Source of the DNA: Candidatus Kaiserbacteria bacterium
GTDB lineage: Bacteria > Patescibacteriota > Minisyncoccia > Phycocordibacterales > UBA2100
NCBI GenBank assembly: GCA_003164215.1
Contig: PLSR01000019.1
Span: forward strand, 1-50,122
Direction: 5' to 3'
Length of the DNA: 50,122 nt
The number at the start of each line of letters is the position of its first letter. Position 1 is the stretch's first letter. Below, piece by piece: positions 1,821-11,869 of the stretch. The position numbers were made by a program, and so were the translations under genes. The notes beneath the pieces were generated by a model. It was not told the DNA's origin. It did no database searches and was given only the letters and a program-made list of their open reading frames with translations.

Positions 1821-2039
1821 TTAGGCAGTGCGACGCTTCCAACCTAATTCGGTAAGCACCTCGGTGAGCGTGCCTGCTTCTTGTAATTCTTCGAAAAAAA
1901 GTTCGACGACCTCGCTAAAGCGGCGCTTCACTTCGGCCATGTTCTTACCGCTCGTCGAAAGATCAAGCGCGGGCGTATAGGCAACGTAGCGCTTGCCATG
2001 CTTCGAAATATTGACGGAAAGAGATGTCTTGAGTTCCAT
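1821..2039 (-). CDS. HicB-like protein (short, possibly truncated)
   Basis: YVAYTPALDLSTSGKNMAEVKRRFSEVVELFFE; no HicA partner seen. Confidence 0.65.
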   Translation of the reverse strand: MELKTSLSVNISKHGKRYVAYTPALDLSTSGKNMAEVKRRFSEVVELFFEELQEAGTLTEVLTELGWKRRTA

Positions 2040-2803: not shown

Positions 2804-3718
2804 CTATACCAGAAGTGCATTAAGCTTTTCGCGTATCAACTCCAAATCCCCTACCAGCGGGCTCTTGGGCCACTTCTCGATAAGCGCAGTCATCGTGCGT
2901 ATGTAGTTCCCGAGGAGATCCTTTTTTGGGGCATTGAATCGCGTGAATATCTCTTCCCCGTTCGTCTCAAAATCAGTGAGAATTTCAGACGTGTTACTGA
3001 TGACATCAGCGGATTTCAGGAGAACTGAGTTATTCGAGAATGTCTTGATATGTTCAAGAGCTTCTTGCTTGCGGTCCGCCCAGGGGAGATCCCTTTTCGT
3101 CTCGGTGACACTTCCGACGAGCAGCGCGACCTCCGCGCCAAAACGTTCTTCTATCATTTCCCGCGTGACCTTTTTCGCCGGAATACTATCCTCCATCGTA
3201 TCGTGCAGTATTCCAGCAACAATGGTATCTTCATCCGCCCCCGCCCGAGCCAGAATGAGGCCGACAGTCAGTGGATGCGTGATGTACGGGATGTCTTTAC
3301 CTTTTCGCTTCTGTTTCTGATACACCTCGTGCGTCTTCATCGAGAATCGTACGGCCTTCTGAATCGCGATTGAATAGATCATACCGTTGGGTCCATTGTA
3401 GCCGACTGCGGTCTCATTCATACATTCAGCAATGATCTCGGCGCACAGCTCATCGGTAATGTACTTTCTCGCAGAAAACGGCACTTCCCCATCACCTTCT
3501 GTGAACGGATCTTCACCGAACATCGACCATAGCGCACTAAGCTTTTCGGGCGTTATATCCGGTCCATACATCTCCTTTAGGCTATTTCGCGTTATCCGTT
3601 TGCACGCCTCGATCGCTTCCGGCAAGCTTTCATACGAACCCCCCTCGTAGCGTTCACTCTCGTCCATGTAGTGATAGTTATCGTCTACAAAGACCCTATA
3701 CTTCTTATTCGTTGTCAT
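2804..3718 (-). CDS. HD-domain (RelA/SpoT hydrolase-like, HD_4) protein with an extra N-terminal domain
   Basis: QKRKGKDIPYITHPL..AGILHDTMED..LLKSADVISN; about 110 aa unknown N-terminus. Confidence 0.8.
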   Translation of the reverse strand: MTTNKKYRVFVDDNYHYMDESERYEGGSYESLPEAIEACKRITRNSLKEMYGPDITPEKLSALWSMFGEDPFTEGDGEVPFSARKYITDELCAEIIAECMNETAVGYNGPNGMIYSIAIQKAVRFSMKTHEVYQKQKRKGKDIPYITHPLTVGLILARAGADEDTIVAGILHDTMEDSIPAKKVTREMIEERFGAEVALLVGSVTETKRDLPWADRKQEALEHIKTFSNNSVLLKSADVISNTSEILTDFETNGEEIFTRFNAPKKDLLGNYIRTMTALIEKWPKSPLVGDLELIREKLNALLV

Positions 3719-4034: not shown

Positions 4035-4089
4035 ACGGTAATATTACAATTTGATTCCTTATCACGGAGGTTGCGGCTATAATGTGCCC

Positions 4090-4791
4090 ATGAGTGATTT
4101 CAGCATCTACTGCGACGAAAGCAATCATCTGGAAAGGGATGGTATATCTGCTATGGTTTTAGGGGCTGTATATGGACCTTCTGAAAAGATTAAGGCCGCA
4201 AATAAGCGCATACGGGAAATAAAGGAAAAGCACAAAATCGGCCCAACCACTGAAGTGAAATGGACAAAAGTTGCACCTAACAAGATAGCTTTTTATCTCG
4301 ATGTAATCGACTATTTCTTTGATAATGACGACCTTCACTTTCGAGCATTGATCGTAAACAAAGACAATCTTGATCATGAAAAATATAACCAAACGCACGA
4401 TGAGTTTTACTACAAAATGTACTTCGAGCTTCTAAGCAAGATTCTTGATCCTCAACAGAAGTATTACATTTATCTTGATATAAAAGACACACGAGGGAGT
4501 CGGAAAGTAAAAAAACTGAGAGACGTGCTGAGTAATAACATGTATGACTTCGGCGGAAATATCATCAAACGAATTCAGCAGGTACGGTCGAATGAAATTG
4601 AGATTTTGCAACTCACCGATCTGCTTATAGGCGCGATGCAATTCTTAAATCGATCAGACGTTAAAAGCGAAGCTAAAAAAACAATAGTCGAAAGAATGAA
4701 GGCACGATCCGGTTATGATCTCTCAAAGTCTACTCTCGTGCGGGAACCAAAGACAAACATTTTTTACTGGGGAGTATATAACCATGCGTAA
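4090..4791 (+). CDS. DUF3800-family (RNase H-like fold) protein
   Basis: IYCDESNHL, EVKWTKV, YIYLDIKDT, ILQLTDLLIGA; TATAAT 6 nt before the ATG. Confidence 0.85.
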   Translation: MSDFSIYCDESNHLERDGISAMVLGAVYGPSEKIKAANKRIREIKEKHKIGPTTEVKWTKVAPNKIAFYLDVIDYFFDNDDLHFRALIVNKDNLDHEKYNQTHDEFYYKMYFELLSKILDPQQKYYIYLDIKDTRGSRKVKKLRDVLSNNMYDFGGNIIKRIQQVRSNEIEILQLTDLLIGAMQFLNRSDVKSEAKKTIVERMKARSGYDLSKSTLVREPKTNIFYWGVYNHA

Positions 4792-5444: not shown

Positions 5445-8400
5445 CTAAAAGGTGGTAGTTTCATCAATTTCTTTCATTATGCGAACCGTTTCGGATAGTG
5501 CGACGATCATTTTTTGATAGTGTTCTATATCTTCATTGGAAAGTGTCCTCCCCTTTCGATCTTTAAGCCACTTCTGTGCTGGTTGATAGCCACCGATATA
5601 AAAATTGTATGCAATGGCAGGCACGTTGCCGAAAAATTGTTCTTTGTTGATATAGACATTTCCGTCTTTGTATTCGATTTTTTCTACCATATTGGAGCCG
5701 TCGATCGGATAAGTCGTGATGAACTGATTAACCTTTGGTGATTCGAGAAGATGTAGAGTACGTAATTCCCGGCCGAGTGTGACGAACCTCTCAAACTGCG
5801 TCTTATCAGTTGGATATGGAACGCGCGGAAAATCTACACGCAAAAACTCTTTGTACTTCTCCCGATATTCAGGAGAATGTAGGAAAGCATAAATATAATA
5901 AAGAATGTCCTCCGCATTAACTTTTCCAACAATTTCTTGAATACTTTCGACGATCGATTGCCTGAGATTCAATGTGCGAGTTCCATCCTCGTTAAAACAA
6001 TACAATGGAAAAACAACCCCACCTCCTCTCCGAAATATATTTAGATCGACGAGACTTTTGGAAATGAACAAAACATCCCAATTTGGTCCTCCAGCAGCAA
6101 CTGATTGACGTCCAATAATTAGAGCGACATTATCTCCCCTTACCATGTGTCGCATCACTCTATTTTGCCATTCCTGCACAAGATATTGCTGATAATAAAC
6201 TTGGCGATTATCAAATGGCCTTGCAAGGAAATTATTGATGAGATCTGATTGATAAGTGAACCTTTCTTTAAATTCCTTAATTACAAACTTCCTAAAATCT
6301 TTAATCGAAAAAACTTTTTTAACCTCATCGACTGAGGTATTTGGATCATAAAATCTCTTTATTCGTCCTGATAACTCATCGTGGAGCAGATCGGTCGCAA
6401 ACGCATCACGACCTGTCATAAAACCCAGTGAGTTTTCGAGAAATAGTTCCTTGATCAGGAATCCGCGTTCATAATCTGAATAACCAGTCTGGTCCTTAAG
6501 ATCAAAAAATATTTGTTTCTTATCAAGTTTAAGTGGCACCCAAGTAATATTTGAAGCATCTAGTGCACTGAATTTTGAAATTCTGCTCCCGTATAAATCT
6601 GAGTGTGACACCATGGCAAGATCCGAGGCTTTCTTCTCCCCTGTCTTTATTGCGAGTAATATTGCGACCCCCTGCATGATATCGAAAATATTTTCGTCTT
6701 TAGATCCATTTAACGATGTTTCCTGCCTCTTTGCATTGCCATGTAAATCTAAAATGAAAATTTTGTCGAACGTCTTGGCCAAATGCCATCGCATTCCCCT
6801 AAATGTTGGTCCATCCAGATAACTATGGTCCGTAATCATAGCAATGACTCCTGAGCCATTTTTTTCTATCATATCCTCAGCTAGCGCTATGAATTTCACA
6901 TAATCATTTTTCAGCCATATTTTTCTTTCTTTTAGCGGCAATACTCCCCCAGGTTCATAGCGATATTTATTAACAAGAGAATTTGCATATTCGGAGTCAT
7001 TACTACTTACTCCAGCATATGGTGGGTTACCCATGATAACCATGATGGGTAGTTCGTTTTTGACTTTATTTGCCTGATTAGATTCCTCCGTAATCGCCTT
7101 TCCAAAGCCGATATCGAACAGTGTTTTTTGTTCTTCCTCTCCTTTTTCGAGTGAATTTGTGAGATAAATTCCAAGCCGCGCATTTTCGATCTTTGCCCCC
7201 GACTCTTGAATTGTCGACGAGAGTTTGAGATGGGCGATGGTGTATGAAGCCATCATCAGCTCGAAGCCATGCAATCGCGGCAAAAGGTCGCTATTAACAT
7301 ATTGGCTCCAGCGGCCCTCTTGGCTCTCAAACGTTTTGCGAATATGGAGTATTACTTCGTTGAGAAATGTGCCGGTGCCCGTTGCGGGGTCAAGAATTTG
7401 CACTTTATGCACCTGCTCTTTCTTTTTCTTCCCCTGTTCTTCTCTCGTTATCTCAATCTTGGATGCATCGGCAAGACCTTGCGGAAGATCGAACTCTTTT
7501 TTAAGGATGTCATCGACTGCGCGGACGATAAAATGCACAACGGGTAGCGGCGTATAGAAAACGCCCATCTTCTTACGCTCGACAGAATCATATGCCTGCA
7601 GGAAGTCTTCGTAGAAATGGATGATTGGGTCGCGACTGCTGTCACGTTCCACTTTGTAGTAATTGTGGACGATTGCCTGCACATCAGCGTGTGTGAATTC
7701 TTCGCATAATTCGTTGACGATCATCTCGATGCGCGAATCGAACGACGGCCCCGCGATGTGGTCGAAAAAATGCCGTAGAAATGGGTTAGATGCGGGCACG
7801 AGATCGCGCGCCTTTTGGCGTGAGAACGTATCATCGGACTTTTCGTCATAATAACGAGCCGCGAAAAGCCCATAGACGAGCGTCTGTGCATACATATCGG
7901 CAAATTTTGCTTTGTCGAGATCGGCGAGCAGGAGTTTCTTGATCACTTCATAGACAGCCAAGAGATTCTCATTTTTTGCGTTGTTTTCGTCTGCGAGAAA
8001 TTTCTTGATGTTGTCGCGGATGCGGCGTGCTTTGCCCGCCATCACCTTTGCCAAGACTGTGCCTGATTTGATCGGTTCTTTGGATTCTTTGATGAAATCC
8101 TTGACGGTGTCTTCAAGGAGTTGGAATGACGATTCAAATGTCGCGATCGTGTCTCCCTGAAGTTTCCCAATGACTATCGGGTCGGCGTACGGCGCGGTGT
8201 TCCGATAGAACCGAAATTCAAGACCGTTGGTGAGAATAATATTTGAGTAGCCATAGTACCTATCCATCTGTTCGCTTTTTTCTATATCGTCGAGCACGAC
8301 ATTCACATCCTTTGCTTCGGCATAGGCGATGACAACTTTCCCTTTGAGAAATACGAAATCGGGCGCTCCGTATTCACTGCGCTTCGGTTCGTTGATTACG

Positions 8401-8522
8401 ATGAGTCCAGTGATGCCTTCAAACAGTTCCTTTAGAGCAGGGCGGTACGAATGTTCTCGCGCATGGCCACTCGCATGGGTTTCAATGACCTTGGCTATGA
8501 AAGTTCCGACCGGCTTAGGCAT
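5445..8522 (-). CDS. Type IIG-like restriction-modification enzyme (nuclease, N6-adenine MTase, type-ISP-like C-terminal specificity domain)
   Basis: GAPDF..YAEAK, GVFYTP, ILDPATGTGTF, GNPPY, IGGYQPAQKWLKDRK; no helicase motifs. Confidence 0.9.
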   Translation of the reverse strand: MPKPVGTFIAKVIETHASGHAREHSYRPALKELFEGITGLIVINEPKRSEYGAPDFVFLKGKVVIAYAEAKDVNVVLDDIEKSEQMDRYYGYSNIILTNGLEFRFYRNTAPYADPIVIGKLQGDTIATFESSFQLLEDTVKDFIKESKEPIKSGTVLAKVMAGKARRIRDNIKKFLADENNAKNENLLAVYEVIKKLLLADLDKAKFADMYAQTLVYGLFAARYYDEKSDDTFSRQKARDLVPASNPFLRHFFDHIAGPSFDSRIEMIVNELCEEFTHADVQAIVHNYYKVERDSSRDPIIHFYEDFLQAYDSVERKKMGVFYTPLPVVHFIVRAVDDILKKEFDLPQGLADASKIEITREEQGKKKKEQVHKVQILDPATGTGTFLNEVILHIRKTFESQEGRWSQYVNSDLLPRLHGFELMMASYTIAHLKLSSTIQESGAKIENARLGIYLTNSLEKGEEEQKTLFDIGFGKAITEESNQANKVKNELPIMVIMGNPPYAGVSSNDSEYANSLVNKYRYEPGGVLPLKERKIWLKNDYVKFIALAEDMIEKNGSGVIAMITDHSYLDGPTFRGMRWHLAKTFDKIFILDLHGNAKRQETSLNGSKDENIFDIMQGVAILLAIKTGEKKASDLAMVSHSDLYGSRISKFSALDASNITWVPLKLDKKQIFFDLKDQTGYSDYERGFLIKELFLENSLGFMTGRDAFATDLLHDELSGRIKRFYDPNTSVDEVKKVFSIKDFRKFVIKEFKERFTYQSDLINNFLARPFDNRQVYYQQYLVQEWQNRVMRHMVRGDNVALIIGRQSVAAGGPNWDVLFISKSLVDLNIFRRGGGVVFPLYCFNEDGTRTLNLRQSIVESIQEIVGKVNAEDILYYIYAFLHSPEYREKYKEFLRVDFPRVPYPTDKTQFERFVTLGRELRTLHLLESPKVNQFITTYPIDGSNMVEKIEYKDGNVYINKEQFFGNVPAIAYNFYIGGYQPAQKWLKDRKGRTLSNEDIEHYQKMIVALSETVRIMKEIDETTTF

Positions 8523-8608
8523 TAAGCCGAATCATCCCACAAATCTTCATGTTTGAAAATCTCCCCGGCGTACGGGTACAAAAGTATCAATCCGATGCAG
8601 CGAACGCT

Positions 8609-9340
8609 CTACTGCACGTAGAAATTCGCGCGGACGGTGACGGTCACTTGTTTGTCTATGCTCGACGTATCGTATTGGCCGTAGTCTTCGACGTTGGTGG
8701 AATTGGGCGCGAGCACTTGCACGACGCCGGAAGAGGCAGTCTCCAAGGCGCCGACCGTGGATCCCCCGCTCTGTGCGATCGCGCTGGCGCGTGCTTTGGC
8801 GTCTTTGATCGCGGCACCGAGTAACGACACGCGCAGTTGCGGAAGCGTCGAGATGTAATATTGCGGCTGCTCGGGAGAAAGGTTCGCACCGTCCGAGAGA
8901 AGGGCATCGAGCGCGGTGATGTCGTGCGAAAGCGTGTCGATCTTGTGCACGTCGCTCGTGGAGATCGTGACCGAGTCGTTCACCGAATAGCCGGAGATGG
9001 TGCCGTCTTTGGAAGAATAGTTGCCTGATGAGGAAACCGTCGCGCTCGTGATACTGGTCGAGGCGAGCTTTTGGTTGGCCAGGTATTTCGCGATGATGTT
9101 CGCATCGCTCACGACTCGTGCCGAGACCGAGGCGACCTCGCCTGGGTAAGCGTTCTCGTTGATATCAATGGTCCACGAAGCGGTGTCGGCGGTCGCGGCA
9201 GTCGATGCCGAGCCTGTGACCGAGATCGTATTTCCTTGTCCGCGGGCTGATATCCCCCACCCGACGAACGCAAGACCCGCGAATAATGCGACTCCGAGAA
9301 GTACGGCCGGAGCGACGAGGGGCCGATCAAAGAATTTCAT
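8609..9340 (-). CDS. SIMPL (DUF541) domain protein
   Basis: TM segment, ISVTGSA, AIKDAKARASAIA, SIDKQVTVTV; TGcTATACT 6 nt before the ATG. Confidence 0.85.
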   Translation of the reverse strand: MKFFDRPLVAPAVLLGVALFAGLAFVGWGISARGQGNTISVTGSASTAATADTASWTIDINENAYPGEVASVSARVVSDANIIAKYLANQKLASTSITSATVSSSGNYSSKDGTISGYSVNDSVTISTSDVHKIDTLSHDITALDALLSDGANLSPEQPQYYISTLPQLRVSLLGAAIKDAKARASAIAQSGGSTVGALETASSGVVQVLAPNSTNVEDYGQYDTSSIDKQVTVTVRANFYVQ

Positions 9341-9397
9341 GCCGCCAGTATAGCATTGGGTTCTTGTAATTTTCATCGTGGGTACGCTAGAATGTAC

Positions 9398-9452
9398 GTA
9401 CTACGACGAAAAGGGCTCCGAACGGCTAACTACCTAAGGAGGCCTTTTCTTT
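9398..9452 (+). ncRNA. Putative NYN-associated hairpin RNA, copy 1
   Basis: TAGAAT -10 at 9388; GTACTACGACGAAAAGGGCTCC..GGAGGCCTTTTCTTT. Confidence 0.55.
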
Positions 9453-9496
9453 TATCACCCCCGGTTGACAGTCACTCCCAGCCTGCTACAATTCTG

Positions 9497-9549
9497 GTAT
9501 TACGACGGAAAAGGATCCGAAAGGTGTTGGTGCCTTAGGAGCCTTTTTC
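9497..9549 (+). ncRNA. Putative NYN-associated hairpin RNA, copy 2 (overlaps the NYN stop codon in antisense)
   Basis: TTGACA(9465)-16 bp-TACAAT(9487) with extended TG; GTATTACGACGGAAAAGGATCC..GGAGCCTTTTTC. Confidence 0.6.
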
Positions 9550-10074
9550 ATTTATGGCCCCTATGTAAGTTCTGAGATTCTCCAGATTATCGAAATATTC
9601 TGAGCCGATTTTCTTATACAAAGAAGATGCCCGCTTCCTGTCGGGAAATAACAGCTTCTTGAACCGCCCTTCTTCAATAAGAAAATCGACTAGATTTTTG
9701 TAATCACCATCACCCGACACGAGAACGATCTTCCCGAACGCTTCTCGTTTATATAACCGTTTCATTACCGAAAAGATAATGTCTGAATCGACATTCCCCT
9801 TTTTATTACCGATCATCGGTTCGCTATGTTGTCTGAATACCAGAATAAAACCCGCATTCTGGATCTTCTCATATAATTTCTCGGCGCTATCGGTATCTTG
9901 AACGTATCCCAAATGATAGAACGCTTTACTAACAGAGTATTTCTCCTTCAAGTAGATTCTGAATCGGTAGAGGTCGATCTCCCAGGGATTAAGATCCCGC
10001 TTCGCCGTACCCATATACAAATTTTGCCCATCGATAAAGGCGAAATTACCGACCCCGGTAGTGACCCCCGTCAT
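9535..10074 (-). CDS. NYN domain (LabA/DUF88, PIN-like) ribonuclease
   Basis: AFIDGQNL, KKGNVDSD, IVLVSGDGDY. Confidence 0.9.
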   Translation of the reverse strand: MTGVTTGVGNFAFIDGQNLYMGTAKRDLNPWEIDLYRFRIYLKEKYSVSKAFYHLGYVQDTDSAEKLYEKIQNAGFILVFRQHSEPMIGNKKGNVDSDIIFSVMKRLYKREAFGKIVLVSGDGDYKNLVDFLIEEGRFKKLLFPDRKRASSLYKKIGSEYFDNLENLRTYIGAINEKGS

Positions 10075-10098
10075 CGCACTATTGTAACACTGTCGTTA

Positions 10099-11763
10099 TT
10101 ACATTCTTTCTGGTGCGGGGATGGCGAGGATGGAAAGGCCGTTTTTGAGGGTATGCGAGAGGGCCTCGACGATCGCGACCTTGTGCGGTTCGTCTTTGGA
10201 CTGATCGAGGATTTGAACTTGTCCGTACCAGCTGTTGAATGCGCTCGCGACCTCGATCAAGTAGGTGGCGAGATGGTGCGGCTCATATTCGCGTGCGGCG
10301 CGGGCGACGATCTCCGGGAATCGGGCGAGCAGGCGCATGAGGTCCGTCGGCTCCGTTCCTGCATCGAAAGCGGGTTTGATATTGGCGACGTGTACCCTAT
10401 CGAGGATCGCATGTGTGCGCGCAAAGGTGTATTGCAGATAGGGTCCTGAATCGCCTTCCATCGAAAGCGCGCGTGCCGGATCGAAGATGATGTCCTTGCC
10501 TGCCGCTTGCTTCAGAATCTGATATTTGATCGCAGCAACGGCGATCTCTTGTGCCAACTTCTCGTGATCCTTGGCCCGGCTCTCGGCGGCGCGCGCCTTC
10601 GCCGCTTCGGTGAGCTCGGTGAGCAAGGATTCCCCGGTCACGACGTTGCCCTTACGGCTCGACATCTTCCCTTGCGCGAAACGCATCATGCCGTGCGTAA
10701 CGTGTTCGATCTTCGGTGCGATATCGGGCATGACGAATTCCATCACCTTCTTGATGACCTTAAAATAATCCATCTGCTCGCTCGCAGTGACCGTTATAGA
10801 AGTGTCGAAGGTGGCAGTGTCGGCCTTGAGCTTGGCGAGGCCGAGGTCTTTCGTCTCATACGTGGGCAATCCCAGGCCCGTGACGAAAACGCGCGTATGG
10901 AGGCCGTACTTCTCGCCGACGAATATAATGGCGCCTTCGCTTGGCGTAAATACTTCCGGGTGTGCGCGGACGATCTCCATGCCGATAGGCGCCGTCTCGC
11001 TCTCGAAGAAGTAATAATCGAATTTTGTGCCGAGGACCGTATAGATATCTTCGAAATGTGCGAGTGTGATCTCGCGGCCTTTGGCGTACATCTCATTAAC
11101 CTCAGGATCGGAGCGATCGTAGACCTTCTTGTTGATCTCGTTGATCGCAACCGCGATCTGGCCATCGGCTTCGTAGCGCGTCGAACCTTCGACATATGCG
11201 GAGGATATTTCTTCGATCGTGGGCTCGGTCGTGCCGCGCTCAAGAAGCACATAGAGCGCCTTCGCAACGTGCTGGCCGACATCGCCCTGGTAGTTGGCGC
11301 GCAGGACGGAGGCACCCGAGTGTTCGAGCAGACGCGTGATCGATTCGCCGATCGCGTTGCTCATGAGGTGACCGATATGAAATTGCTTGAAGGGATTTGG
11401 GTCGGTGTATTCGACCATGATGGTCTTCCCGACGAGCGCATCGCCCGTTCCCCACTTTTCATCCGTGCGGGCATGGTCGAGCCGCTCCACGATCGCGGCG
11501 GGAGATAATTTGAAATTGATGAAACCCGGGCCGGCGATGTCGACCTTCTCAACACCTTCGATCACACCGAGCGAGGCAACGATCGCTTCTGCAAGCTCAC
11601 GGGGATTCTTGCCCGATTGCTTCGCGAATTTCAAGGCGACGCCGGTCGCGTAGTCACCATGTGAGAGCTCGGCCGAGTGTTCGAGCGTTATGGTGCCTGA
11701 CGTGACGCCCAGCTCAGTAAGCGCCCGTTCGACGGCTTTTTCAATGCATCCCCGTACATCCAT
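10099..11763 (-). CDS. argS: Arginine--tRNA ligase
   Basis: HGDYAT, AGPGFINF, PNPFKQFHIGH, KMSSRKG, GDSGPYLQY; start set by TACAAT spacing (ORF extends to 11772). Confidence 0.97.
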   Translation of the reverse strand: MDVRGCIEKAVERALTELGVTSGTITLEHSAELSHGDYATGVALKFAKQSGKNPRELAEAIVASLGVIEGVEKVDIAGPGFINFKLSPAAIVERLDHARTDEKWGTGDALVGKTIMVEYTDPNPFKQFHIGHLMSNAIGESITRLLEHSGASVLRANYQGDVGQHVAKALYVLLERGTTEPTIEEISSAYVEGSTRYEADGQIAVAINEINKKVYDRSDPEVNEMYAKGREITLAHFEDIYTVLGTKFDYYFFESETAPIGMEIVRAHPEVFTPSEGAIIFVGEKYGLHTRVFVTGLGLPTYETKDLGLAKLKADTATFDTSITVTASEQMDYFKVIKKVMEFVMPDIAPKIEHVTHGMMRFAQGKMSSRKGNVVTGESLLTELTEAAKARAAESRAKDHEKLAQEIAVAAIKYQILKQAAGKDIIFDPARALSMEGDSGPYLQYTFARTHAILDRVHVANIKPAFDAGTEPTDLMRLLARFPEIVARAAREYEPHHLATYLIEVASAFNSWYGQVQILDQSKDEPHKVAIVEALSHTLKNGLSILAIPAPERM

Positions 11764-11869
11764 GAACGGCATTGTAGCAGGGAGTTATCCCCTTTGCTTG
11801 TGGCTTGACGGTGCGGGATACGGGCGTATGGTGGGAGTAGGAACGAAGGCATTGCGTCTTCTGTCCATT

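Follow-up and report, generated by a model that had tools for sequence, protein, structure and literature searches.

A Structured Small RNA Linked to a Clade of NYN-Domain Nucleases in Patescibacteria and Its Possible Role in a Toxin-Antitoxin-Like Pair

A stretch of 50,122 nt from the genome of a Candidatus Kaiserbacteria bacterium (assembly GCA_003164215.1, contig PLSR01000019.1, positions 1 to 50,122 of the forward strand; hereafter the window) contains a gene for an NYN-domain protein that is faced at its 3' end by two homologous units on the opposite strand, each of them a predicted gene for a small RNA (sRNA). Comparison of this locus with its relatives shows that the NYN nuclease and a dedicated, structured sRNA form a two-component unit whose parts move and decay together. 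Both the sRNA family and the nuclease-sRNA module are, as far as we could find, undescribed, and judged by its sequence features the module is best filed as toxin-antitoxin-like with a putative RNA antidote. The reading that we favor, with a confidence a little short of even, is that of a mobile, toxin-antitoxin-like pair in which the sRNA would act as the antidote or regulator of the nuclease, most likely by binding the NYN protein.

Results

The Locus in the Window

The original prediction placed two homologous plus-strand units, each with a -10 box, just past the 3' end of the NYN gene; a promoter scan, an alignment, and folding all recover them there. The components of the module are as follows.

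9364..9393, plus strand: promoter of sRNA unit 1 (-35 box TTGTAA at 9364-9369, 18-nt spacer, -10 box TAGAAT at 9388-9393)
9400..9455, plus strand: sRNA unit 1, distal to NYN (leader 9400-9408, hairpin 9408-9449, T tract to about 9455)
9465..9492, plus strand: promoter of sRNA unit 2 (-35 box TTGACA at 9465-9470, 16-nt spacer, TG-extended -10 box TACAAT at 9487-9492)
9499..9555, plus strand: sRNA unit 2, proximal to NYN (leader 9499-9507, hairpin 9507-9549, T tract 9544-9555)
9535..10074, minus strand: NYN gene (LabA-like, PF01936; 179 amino acids), from open reading frame (ORF) and Pfam
10081..10089, minus strand: extended -10-like box TG-n-TACAAT, ending 6 nt before the NYN ATG

The two units have the same build: a leader of 9 nt, then an imperfect hairpin (42-43 nt), then a T tract. 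The promoter of unit 1 matches nine of 12 consensus positions, with an offset to the leader that fits the pattern of the family, and that of unit 2 matches 11 of 12; both were among the four sites that the promoter scan returned in 2 kb, compared with 1.5 +/- 1.2 in shuffled sequence. The predicted start of unit 1 is A9400, and that of unit 2 is placed at A9499 because homologs invariably have an A 7 nt downstream of the -10 box. Stretches of 121 nt from the two units share 74% column identity when aligned. Both units fold with an energy of -18.7 kcal/mol (z = -3.40 for unit 1 and -2.65 for unit 2), and the number of shuffled sequences that folded equally well was 0 of 200 for unit 1 and 2 of 200 for unit 2. 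Unit 2 overlaps the 3' end of the NYN gene by about 20 nt: the stop codon (9535-9537) sits within the 3' half of hairpin 2, and the complement of that hairpin arm encodes the last codons, E-K-G-S-stop, just as had been predicted.

An 18-nt motif spanning leader and stem (up to three mismatches) occurs three times in the window against an expectation of 0.15; the third match (3169-3186) lies within the coding sequence of an HD-domain protein and was set aside as chance. No further match to this motif was found across the 1.005-Mb genome, where a reversed-pattern control likewise gave 0. A scan of positions 8500-11000 with Rfam 15 (E <= 10) found no RNA family at the sRNA units; the sole match, to a long noncoding RNA, was dismissed as chance, as it lies in coding sequence and scores 14 bits (E = 8.9) where the gathering score is 38.

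The assignment of the protein to the NYN family was borne out. It matches PF01936 over residues 13-152 at 56.6 bits (cut-off 24.2; E = 5.6e-15), and no other Pfam match was found in it. Five residues, D15, N18, D96, D122, and D124, are unchanged in 16 RNA-linked NYN homologs. We take this set to be the catalytic-type acidic active-site residues of the PIN-like/NYN fold. When the structure predicted with AlphaFold2 (AF2; predicted local distance difference test score, pLDDT, 78.7) was searched with Foldseek, the best match was 2QIP (VPA0982; E = 1.3e-6, template modeling [TM] score 0.63-0.69), followed by the NYN domain of MARF1 (TM about 0.6) and then by FEN-type nucleases. Profile, acidic residues, and predicted fold together confirm that the 179-amino-acid protein belongs to the NYN family and has the NYN/PIN-like fold.

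Linkage to an NYN Clade

The hairpin was detected at 80-98% DNA identity in six of 60 relatives, always at the tail of an NYN-like gene. Two covariance models were used: R1, built from eight copies, and R2, a broader model of 22 sequences spanning all subtypes. Unit 1 scores 71.6 bits with R1 and 59.8 bits with R2, and unit 2 scores 81.7 and 70.7 bits, respectively. R1 then recovered diverged hairpins beside NYN homologs of merely 32-45% identity.

Species-representative genomes (GTDB) contain at least 579 relatives of the NYN gene, of which the best 80 loci (56-74% identity) were analyzed. These loci come from many lineages of Patescibacteria, including Saccharibacteria, Paceibacterota, and Wolfe-, Taylor-, Falkow-, Kaiser-, Nomura-, Uhr-, Moran-, and Spechtbacteria. 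R1 matches all 80 of them, and all 84 of its matches lie on the strand opposite NYN, at the NYN 3' end. The conservation of the motif beside NYN homologs, on which the original prediction depended, is thus seen throughout the set, and absence of the motif there is rejected. On the same loci (380 kb) R2 gave 82 matches, every one on the strand opposite NYN; these include the RNA of a second NYN paralog (L073) and a copy without NYN (L090). Within 2.5 kb on either side, the NYN gene is common to 79 of the 80 loci, and the next most frequent gene cluster occurs at five.

Searching beside NYN alone is biased, and for this reason whole-genome searches for the RNA were run as well. In 61 related genomes, R2 gave 34 matches, comprising 29 beside NYN, four orphans, and one generic terminator. 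The RNA is present at 28 of the 30 clade NYN genes in these genomes (E <= 1e-15); the two that lack it are a contig-end fragment and an NYN domain within a 1,549-amino-acid ORF, and no intact clade NYN gene without the RNA was found. The RNA at G004:C53 is diverged and was recognized at E = 0.0054 plus by eye. Among 150 other Patescibacteria genomes, 17 (about 1 in 9) had matches, 20 in all: 15 beside a convergent NYN gene, three family-like without NYN (one of which stands at a contig start), and two generic terminators. An exact 22-nt core pattern retrieved at least 119 stretches from metagenome contigs, and in the 80 metagenome loci that were analyzed, 65 of the 84 core matches have a convergent NYN gene within 120 nt, five have a partial one, and 14 have none, although four of these 14 have less than 300 nt of sequence on that side.

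The genome of the window has a second NYN-sRNA module, with a different hairpin subtype, on another contig (C6, L044).

C6, 1469-2011, plus strand: NYN gene
C6, about 1964-2039, minus strand: sRNA

A glycosyltransferase-like ORF comes next, and its start overlaps the promoter of this RNA (TTGACG, 17-nt spacer, TATAAT). R1 missed this copy, and R2 found it at 47.8 bits. An R1 match elsewhere in the same genome (C4:2521-2590) is a generic terminator without the leader, and the weak matches L152, L185, and L188 were rejected in the same way, being generic terminators in which the leader is absent.

Most of the relatives G001-G060 also have, at about one per genome, a distant NYN paralog (26-31% identity; E from 1e-8 to 1e-3). 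At ten such loci (L032-L040 and L053), R1 gave at most chance-level matches (E = 0.045 and 0.95), away from the gene; lacking the RNA, this paralog looks like a core gene separate from the mobile clade. Near-identical modules also occur under Gammaproteobacteria, Bdellovibrionales, or Patiriisocius labels (L102, L115, L118, L120, and L123), which may reflect either mis-binning or transfer beyond the Patescibacteria.

Anatomy, Fold, and Selection

When 82 upstream regions were aligned on the start of the model, a conserved promoter became apparent: TTGACA, a 17-nt spacer, TG, a TAnnAT box, and an invariant A 7 nt later. Given this A after a conserved -10 box, the predicted RNA begins with the leader AUYAMGACG. 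The 8 nt past the stem contain on average 5.55 T in the sRNA direction versus 3.62 in the NYN direction, and since nothing but NYN antisense lies beyond the hairpin on the sRNA strand, the predicted transcript is a mini-RNA of about 55-60 nt. We infer its transcription from these features of the sequence. Peat metatranscriptome contigs hold hairpins of relatives (corresponding to window positions 9504-9553), joined to promoter-like flanks unlike those of the window; they do not show transcription, because the contigs include sequence upstream of the predicted start.

The hairpin has been maintained by compensatory change. From a structure-blind MAFFT alignment of 22 sequences, RNAalifold derived 12 pairs, nine of them with compensatory changes, and 91.7% of cells in this alignment are paired. 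The covariation score is 0.489, compared with 0.255 +/- 0.023 for shuffled alignments (0 of 500 reached it), and sliding the partners by one to three columns cuts pairing to 41-69%. In an alignment of 84 rows, 97% of cells are paired, and double changes occur in eight of 13 pairs. Counts of G-U versus A-C are 40:7 and 29:5, an excess that places selection for the fold on the sRNA strand rather than on that of the NYN mRNA.

The sequence is conserved as well as the fold. Across 78 loci, RNA identity is 80% (83% in the core), compared with 65% for NYN amino acids and 41% for third codon positions. Inside the main subtype there is almost no variation in the leader, the apical loop, or the GAAC/UAA internal loop, and the leader recurs across all subtypes and across NYN subfamilies of 30-40% identity, with differing hairpins. 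Aligned with the 84 homologs, unit 1 of the window shows the majority-type internal loop (GAAC/UAA) and a 7-nt apical loop. Leader and stem are thus conserved between the two window units as first described, but their loops, which had been taken simply to differ, are two conserved variants of one RNA family and do not vary freely. The position of the NYN stop codon varies, inside or ahead of the hairpin, and the C-terminal tails show no conservation, so coding constraint does not explain the conservation of the RNA.

Taken together, the near-constant presence of the RNA gene beside the NYN clade, the covarying stems, and the lack of any other common gene strongly support the core of the original prediction, that of a nuclease plus small-RNA module.

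Convergent Overlap with the NYN Gene

Of 21 loci examined, 20 have a facing ORF, and in 18 of these the NYN stop region and the sRNA share about 10-45 nt; the exceptions are L019, where the stop lies 47 nt past the RNA, and L047, where no ORF was called. The hairpin is preceded by an A tract and followed by a T tract and folds on both strands, as a bidirectional terminator does; these features do not account for the promoter, the leader, the conservation of the loops, or the strand bias. Pairing of the leader with the NYN mRNA, of the kind seen in par, was not detected in 81 loci: the energy was -7.40 kcal/mol versus -7.29 kcal/mol for shuffled leaders, the true leader was the better one in 38 of the 81, and no position of pairing was favored.

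No Shine-Dalgarno sequence precedes the ATG of the window gene, and the TG-n-TACAAT box at 10081..10089 may be the promoter from which a leaderless NYN mRNA starts. More generally, a -10-like hexamer ends 4-10 nt ahead of an in-frame NYN start in 43 of 76 loci, compared with 14.9 +/- 3.3 in shuffled sequence, and a Shine-Dalgarno-like 4-mer precedes NYN in nine of the 76; we take this as evidence that NYN mRNAs are often leaderless.

Mobility, Copy Number, and Decay

The module differs in composition from its surroundings, having a GC content of 40-44% in the window versus about 58% in the flanks. Its occurrence is patchy in the genus, and a single genome can have up to five NYN paralogs, each with its own RNA subtype. 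A comparison within the genus for empty sites gave no clean insertion boundary, because the genus is too diverged (argS about 65-70% identical in DNA) and synteny differs; in G074, for example, ileS follows argS. Searching phage and plasmid collections by tblastn gave no match at E <= 1e-5.

Tandem RNA genes, each with its own promoter, occur in the window and at three of the 80 loci (L074, L097, and L098). Examination by eye of three further loci (L158, from IMG/VR, L180, and L247) showed two hairpin units in head-to-tail order, separated by the conserved leader, and after the first unit neither a recognizable promoter nor a T tract. By analogy, such arrays would yield a two-unit precursor reminiscent of the repeat-array RNA antitoxins.

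Decay is seen on the NYN side. At six loci (G059:C5, G034:C1, G055:C10, G015:C4, G033:C4:66310, and G031:C7) the NYN gene has in-frame stops, truncations, or an internal deletion, and the adjacent sRNA gene is intact. The four orphan RNA genes in the relatives retain their promoters, and three of them keep just the last 11-36 NYN codons. Orphan sRNA genes with their promoters intact and no NYN gene were noted in relatives at L148, L149 (1288-1360), L150, and L151, as well as at L090 (905-976), and in metagenome loci at L203, L226, L229, L232, L264, and L268. Three related metagenome contigs have an identical orphan context, which indicates that at least one orphan has been stably inherited.

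At two other metagenome loci (L192 and L252), the GAAC ... UAA core hairpin is found inside a different, larger context, with no T tract, a long-range inverted repeat after the hairpin, and no NYN gene nearby; this may be another RNA that reuses the same hairpin core.

Neighboring Genes

The window NYN protein was unmatched in PADLOC and NCBIfam, and two paralogs weakly match NYN models there. In the window, the module lies between SIMPL/DUF541 and argS genes, and several accessory genes were annotated on its NYN 3' side.

745-1784: Gp49/HigB-like protein followed by a helix-turn-helix (HTH) protein, a type II toxin-antitoxin-like pair
4051-4791: DUF3800 protein gene
5445-8522: Type ISP/MmeI-like restriction-modification enzyme, 1,025 amino acids
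8609-9376, minus strand: SIMPL/DUF541 gene, flanking the module on the NYN 3' side
10099-11772, minus strand: argS, flanking the module on the NYN 5' side

One of the loci with a two-unit NYN-type array also has a PemK/MazF-like toxin gene (L247:287-718, plus strand; PF02452, E = 6e-13). No antitoxin ORF is present in roughly 190 nt upstream of it, and a hairpin RNA of another kind, with a promoter to drive it, faces the gene beside the array. In these bacteria, the pairing of an RNase gene with a convergent sRNA that faces it may be more widespread.

Discussion

A Nuclease and Its Putative RNA Antidote

We propose the following mechanism for the module. The NYN-fold ribonuclease would be made from its own promoter, often from a leaderless mRNA, and would for that reason probably be weakly translated. 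The convergent sRNA, which its promoters predict to be strongly transcribed, would be about 55-60 nt long and run from the leader AUYAMGACG through a long imperfect hairpin to a U tail. It would bind the NYN protein directly and be recognized through its conserved leader and loops; the leader may occupy the active site in the manner of a substrate. The hairpin would double as a common bidirectional terminator, and the complementarity of the sRNA to the 3' end of the NYN mRNA could provide a second layer of control. The two tandem RNA copies in the window would raise the dosage of antidote.

Several observations favor an antidote or regulator. A strong constitutive RNA promoter faces a leaderless nuclease mRNA; the RNA outlives the nuclease, and the reverse was not seen; and the patchy distribution, the foreign composition, and the cognate pairing of paralogs with RNA subtypes all point the same way. 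Recognition of the RNA by the protein is favored over pure antisense control because sequence conservation exceeds what pairing needs, because the fold is strand-specific, and because no pairing with the NYN mRNA was detected for the conserved leader, which the overlap does not include.

Other points weigh against this proposal. The module fails the formal definition of a type III system in its toxin family, in its downstream convergent RNA, in its usually single unit, and in having a hairpin rather than a shown pseudoknot. In the literature searched, no toxin role is documented for NYN/LabA-like proteins, and the PADLOC matches of NYN proteins are weak only. Convergent overlap alone is typical of antisense, type I-like control and not of protein binding. 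Orphan RNAs persist in G031, a genome with an NYN fragment only, which could point to an RNA function independent of NYN. Finally, the linkage fits equally well a non-toxic nuclease that needs or processes an sRNA.

Alternative Explanations

The sRNA might instead act purely in cis as a type I-like antisense RNA, in which case it, or read-through past a conditional terminator, would pair with the 3' hairpin of the NYN mRNA, cleavage or loss of the stop codon would lower NYN synthesis, and the protein would never bind the RNA. The convergent layout, with the sRNA overlapping the NYN stop region in 18 of the 20 loci that have a facing ORF, is what such control would look like; with A and T tracts on both sides of the hairpin, both RNAs should end in complementary stem-loops, and imperfect hairpins are usual among antisense RNAs. 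Antisense pairing demands no particular sequence, however, and conservation of the leader, internal loop, and apical loop far exceeds that of neutral sites; the 40:7 ratio above places selection for the fold on the sRNA strand; and the leader, outside the overlap, is no more complementary to the NYN mRNA than shuffled sequences are. Type I toxins, moreover, are usually small hydrophobic peptides, according to PMC6563280, and here the protein is a 179-amino-acid nuclease. We consider antisense control alone unlikely but a real rival.

To about the same, rather low degree we credit a non-toxic ribonucleoprotein or enzyme-substrate pair, in which the sRNA would be a cofactor, specificity subunit, substrate, or product of NYN with a regulatory or RNA-processing role (NYN might, for example, trim the leader) and not one half of a poison-antidote pair. 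Linkage, covariation, and sequence conservation apply equally to such a pair, and a leader that is universal across NYN subfamilies of 30-40% identity while the hairpins vary, together with orphan RNAs that survive without NYN, would suit it. What speaks for the antidote instead is that patchiness (17 of 150 genomes of the phylum), foreign composition, and several paralogs are typical of selfish or defense modules, that NYN decays by stops and deletions while the RNA stays, and that the surroundings are of accessory type, with the restriction-modification gene and the HigB/HTH-like pair close by in the window.

A plain bidirectional intrinsic terminator with a fortuitous or coupled promoter, and no functional RNA, is very improbable. 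The A tract ahead of the hairpin, the T tract behind it, and folding on both strands are as such a terminator would have them, and a preprint (Fletcher et al., bioRxiv 10.64898/2026.08.19.745784) reports that promoters coupled to terminators are common in bacteria, the termination sites lying no more than 35 bp upstream of a start site on the same strand; the geometry here differs from that of the sites it describes, and we rejected promoter-terminator coupling as the explanation. A terminator would not account for a consensus promoter that stands at a constant spacing ahead of the hairpin in 82 aligned loci and would yield only a mini-transcript, for loops and leader conserved at 80-83%, or for retention of the element, promoter included, after loss of NYN, and generic terminators score merely 25-31 bits and lack the leader. 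The concern that the hairpins act only as terminators is thus unlikely to be justified.

Least probable of all is RNA-guided NYN defense, part of the original prediction, in which the loop or leader would be a programmable guide against phage or plasmid targets: the loops of the two window copies do differ, but over 84 homologs loop and leader are conserved, with two main variants in place of variable spacers and a leader identical across subfamilies, and the idea is disfavored.

Comparison with Known Systems

The putative NYN-antidote pair resembles the type III toxin-antitoxin systems (ToxIN, CptIN, and TenpIN) in combining an endoribonuclease-type protein with a small structured RNA and no protein partner, in having an RNA gene that, to judge by its promoters, would be strongly expressed relative to the toxin, in the occasional tandem arrangement of RNA units, and in being small, mobile, and patchy. 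It differs in that the toxin candidate has an NYN fold and is not ToxN, CptN, or TenpN. The type III RNA is an upstream tandem-repeat array on the strand of the toxin, as defined by Blower et al. 2012 (PMC3401426); the NYN RNA lies downstream, is convergent, has its own promoter, is encoded opposite the NYN strand at all 80 loci, and is usually a single hairpin unit, not a shown pseudoknot. The original suggestion of a type III-like system fits the anatomy of the module and falls outside the formal type III definition by toxin family and by the convergent downstream position of the RNA.

Convergent type I loci with 3' overlap or a common bidirectional terminator include the par/Fst RNA I-RNA II locus of pAD1 and bsrG/SR4 of Bacillus subtilis. 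The NYN loci share with these a predicted convergent transcription, a terminator hairpin in common, and the possibility of kissing stem-loops; the sRNA is cis-encoded, with about 10-45 nt of overlap, and further complementarity was not found. The loci differ from type I in encoding a 179-amino-acid soluble nuclease and not a small membrane peptide, in lacking detectable 5' complementarity of the par kind, and in conserving RNA sequence and strand-specific structure beyond what antisense control needs.

Among proteins, the NYN nuclease is like other NYN/LabA-like members (PF01936, 2QIP VPA0982, and the MARF1 NYN domain) in its fold and conserved acidic residues; the literature searched describes no RNA partner gene for these proteins. 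VapC, the toxin of a type II system, is a PIN-domain protein whose antidote, VapB, is a protein encoded upstream in the operon. The NYN modules resemble VapC in having a related PIN-like metallonuclease fold and two genes; unlike VapC, they have no conserved protein neighbor. The pairing of NYN with an RNA is undescribed in the literature searched, mainly at the level of abstracts.

A bolder version of the favored antidote reading would make the module a new class of RNA-antidote toxin-antitoxin or abortive-infection system, widespread in the candidate phyla radiation (CPR), in which an NYN RNase is neutralized at the protein level by a 60-nt sRNA whose leader acts as a pseudo-substrate in the active site and whose subtype hairpin gives cognate specificity, in a manner analogous to type III without being related to it. 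We regard this as a possibility on the doubtful side.

Significance

Much of bacterial diversity belongs to the Patescibacteria (CPR), and few accessory or defense systems and almost no regulatory RNAs are known from them. The family defined here adds a structured sRNA that is strictly tied to one nuclease clade. If the RNA is an antidote, the RNA-antitoxin repertoire would grow past the three ToxN-like families to include a PIN-like/NYN nuclease, and the widespread bacterial LabA-like NYN proteins would gain a first testable partner and function. The module, at only about 0.8 kb, is self-contained and so directly testable in E. coli, and the PemK/MazF-like gene with its own convergent sRNA hints that an RNase with a facing sRNA may be a general design.

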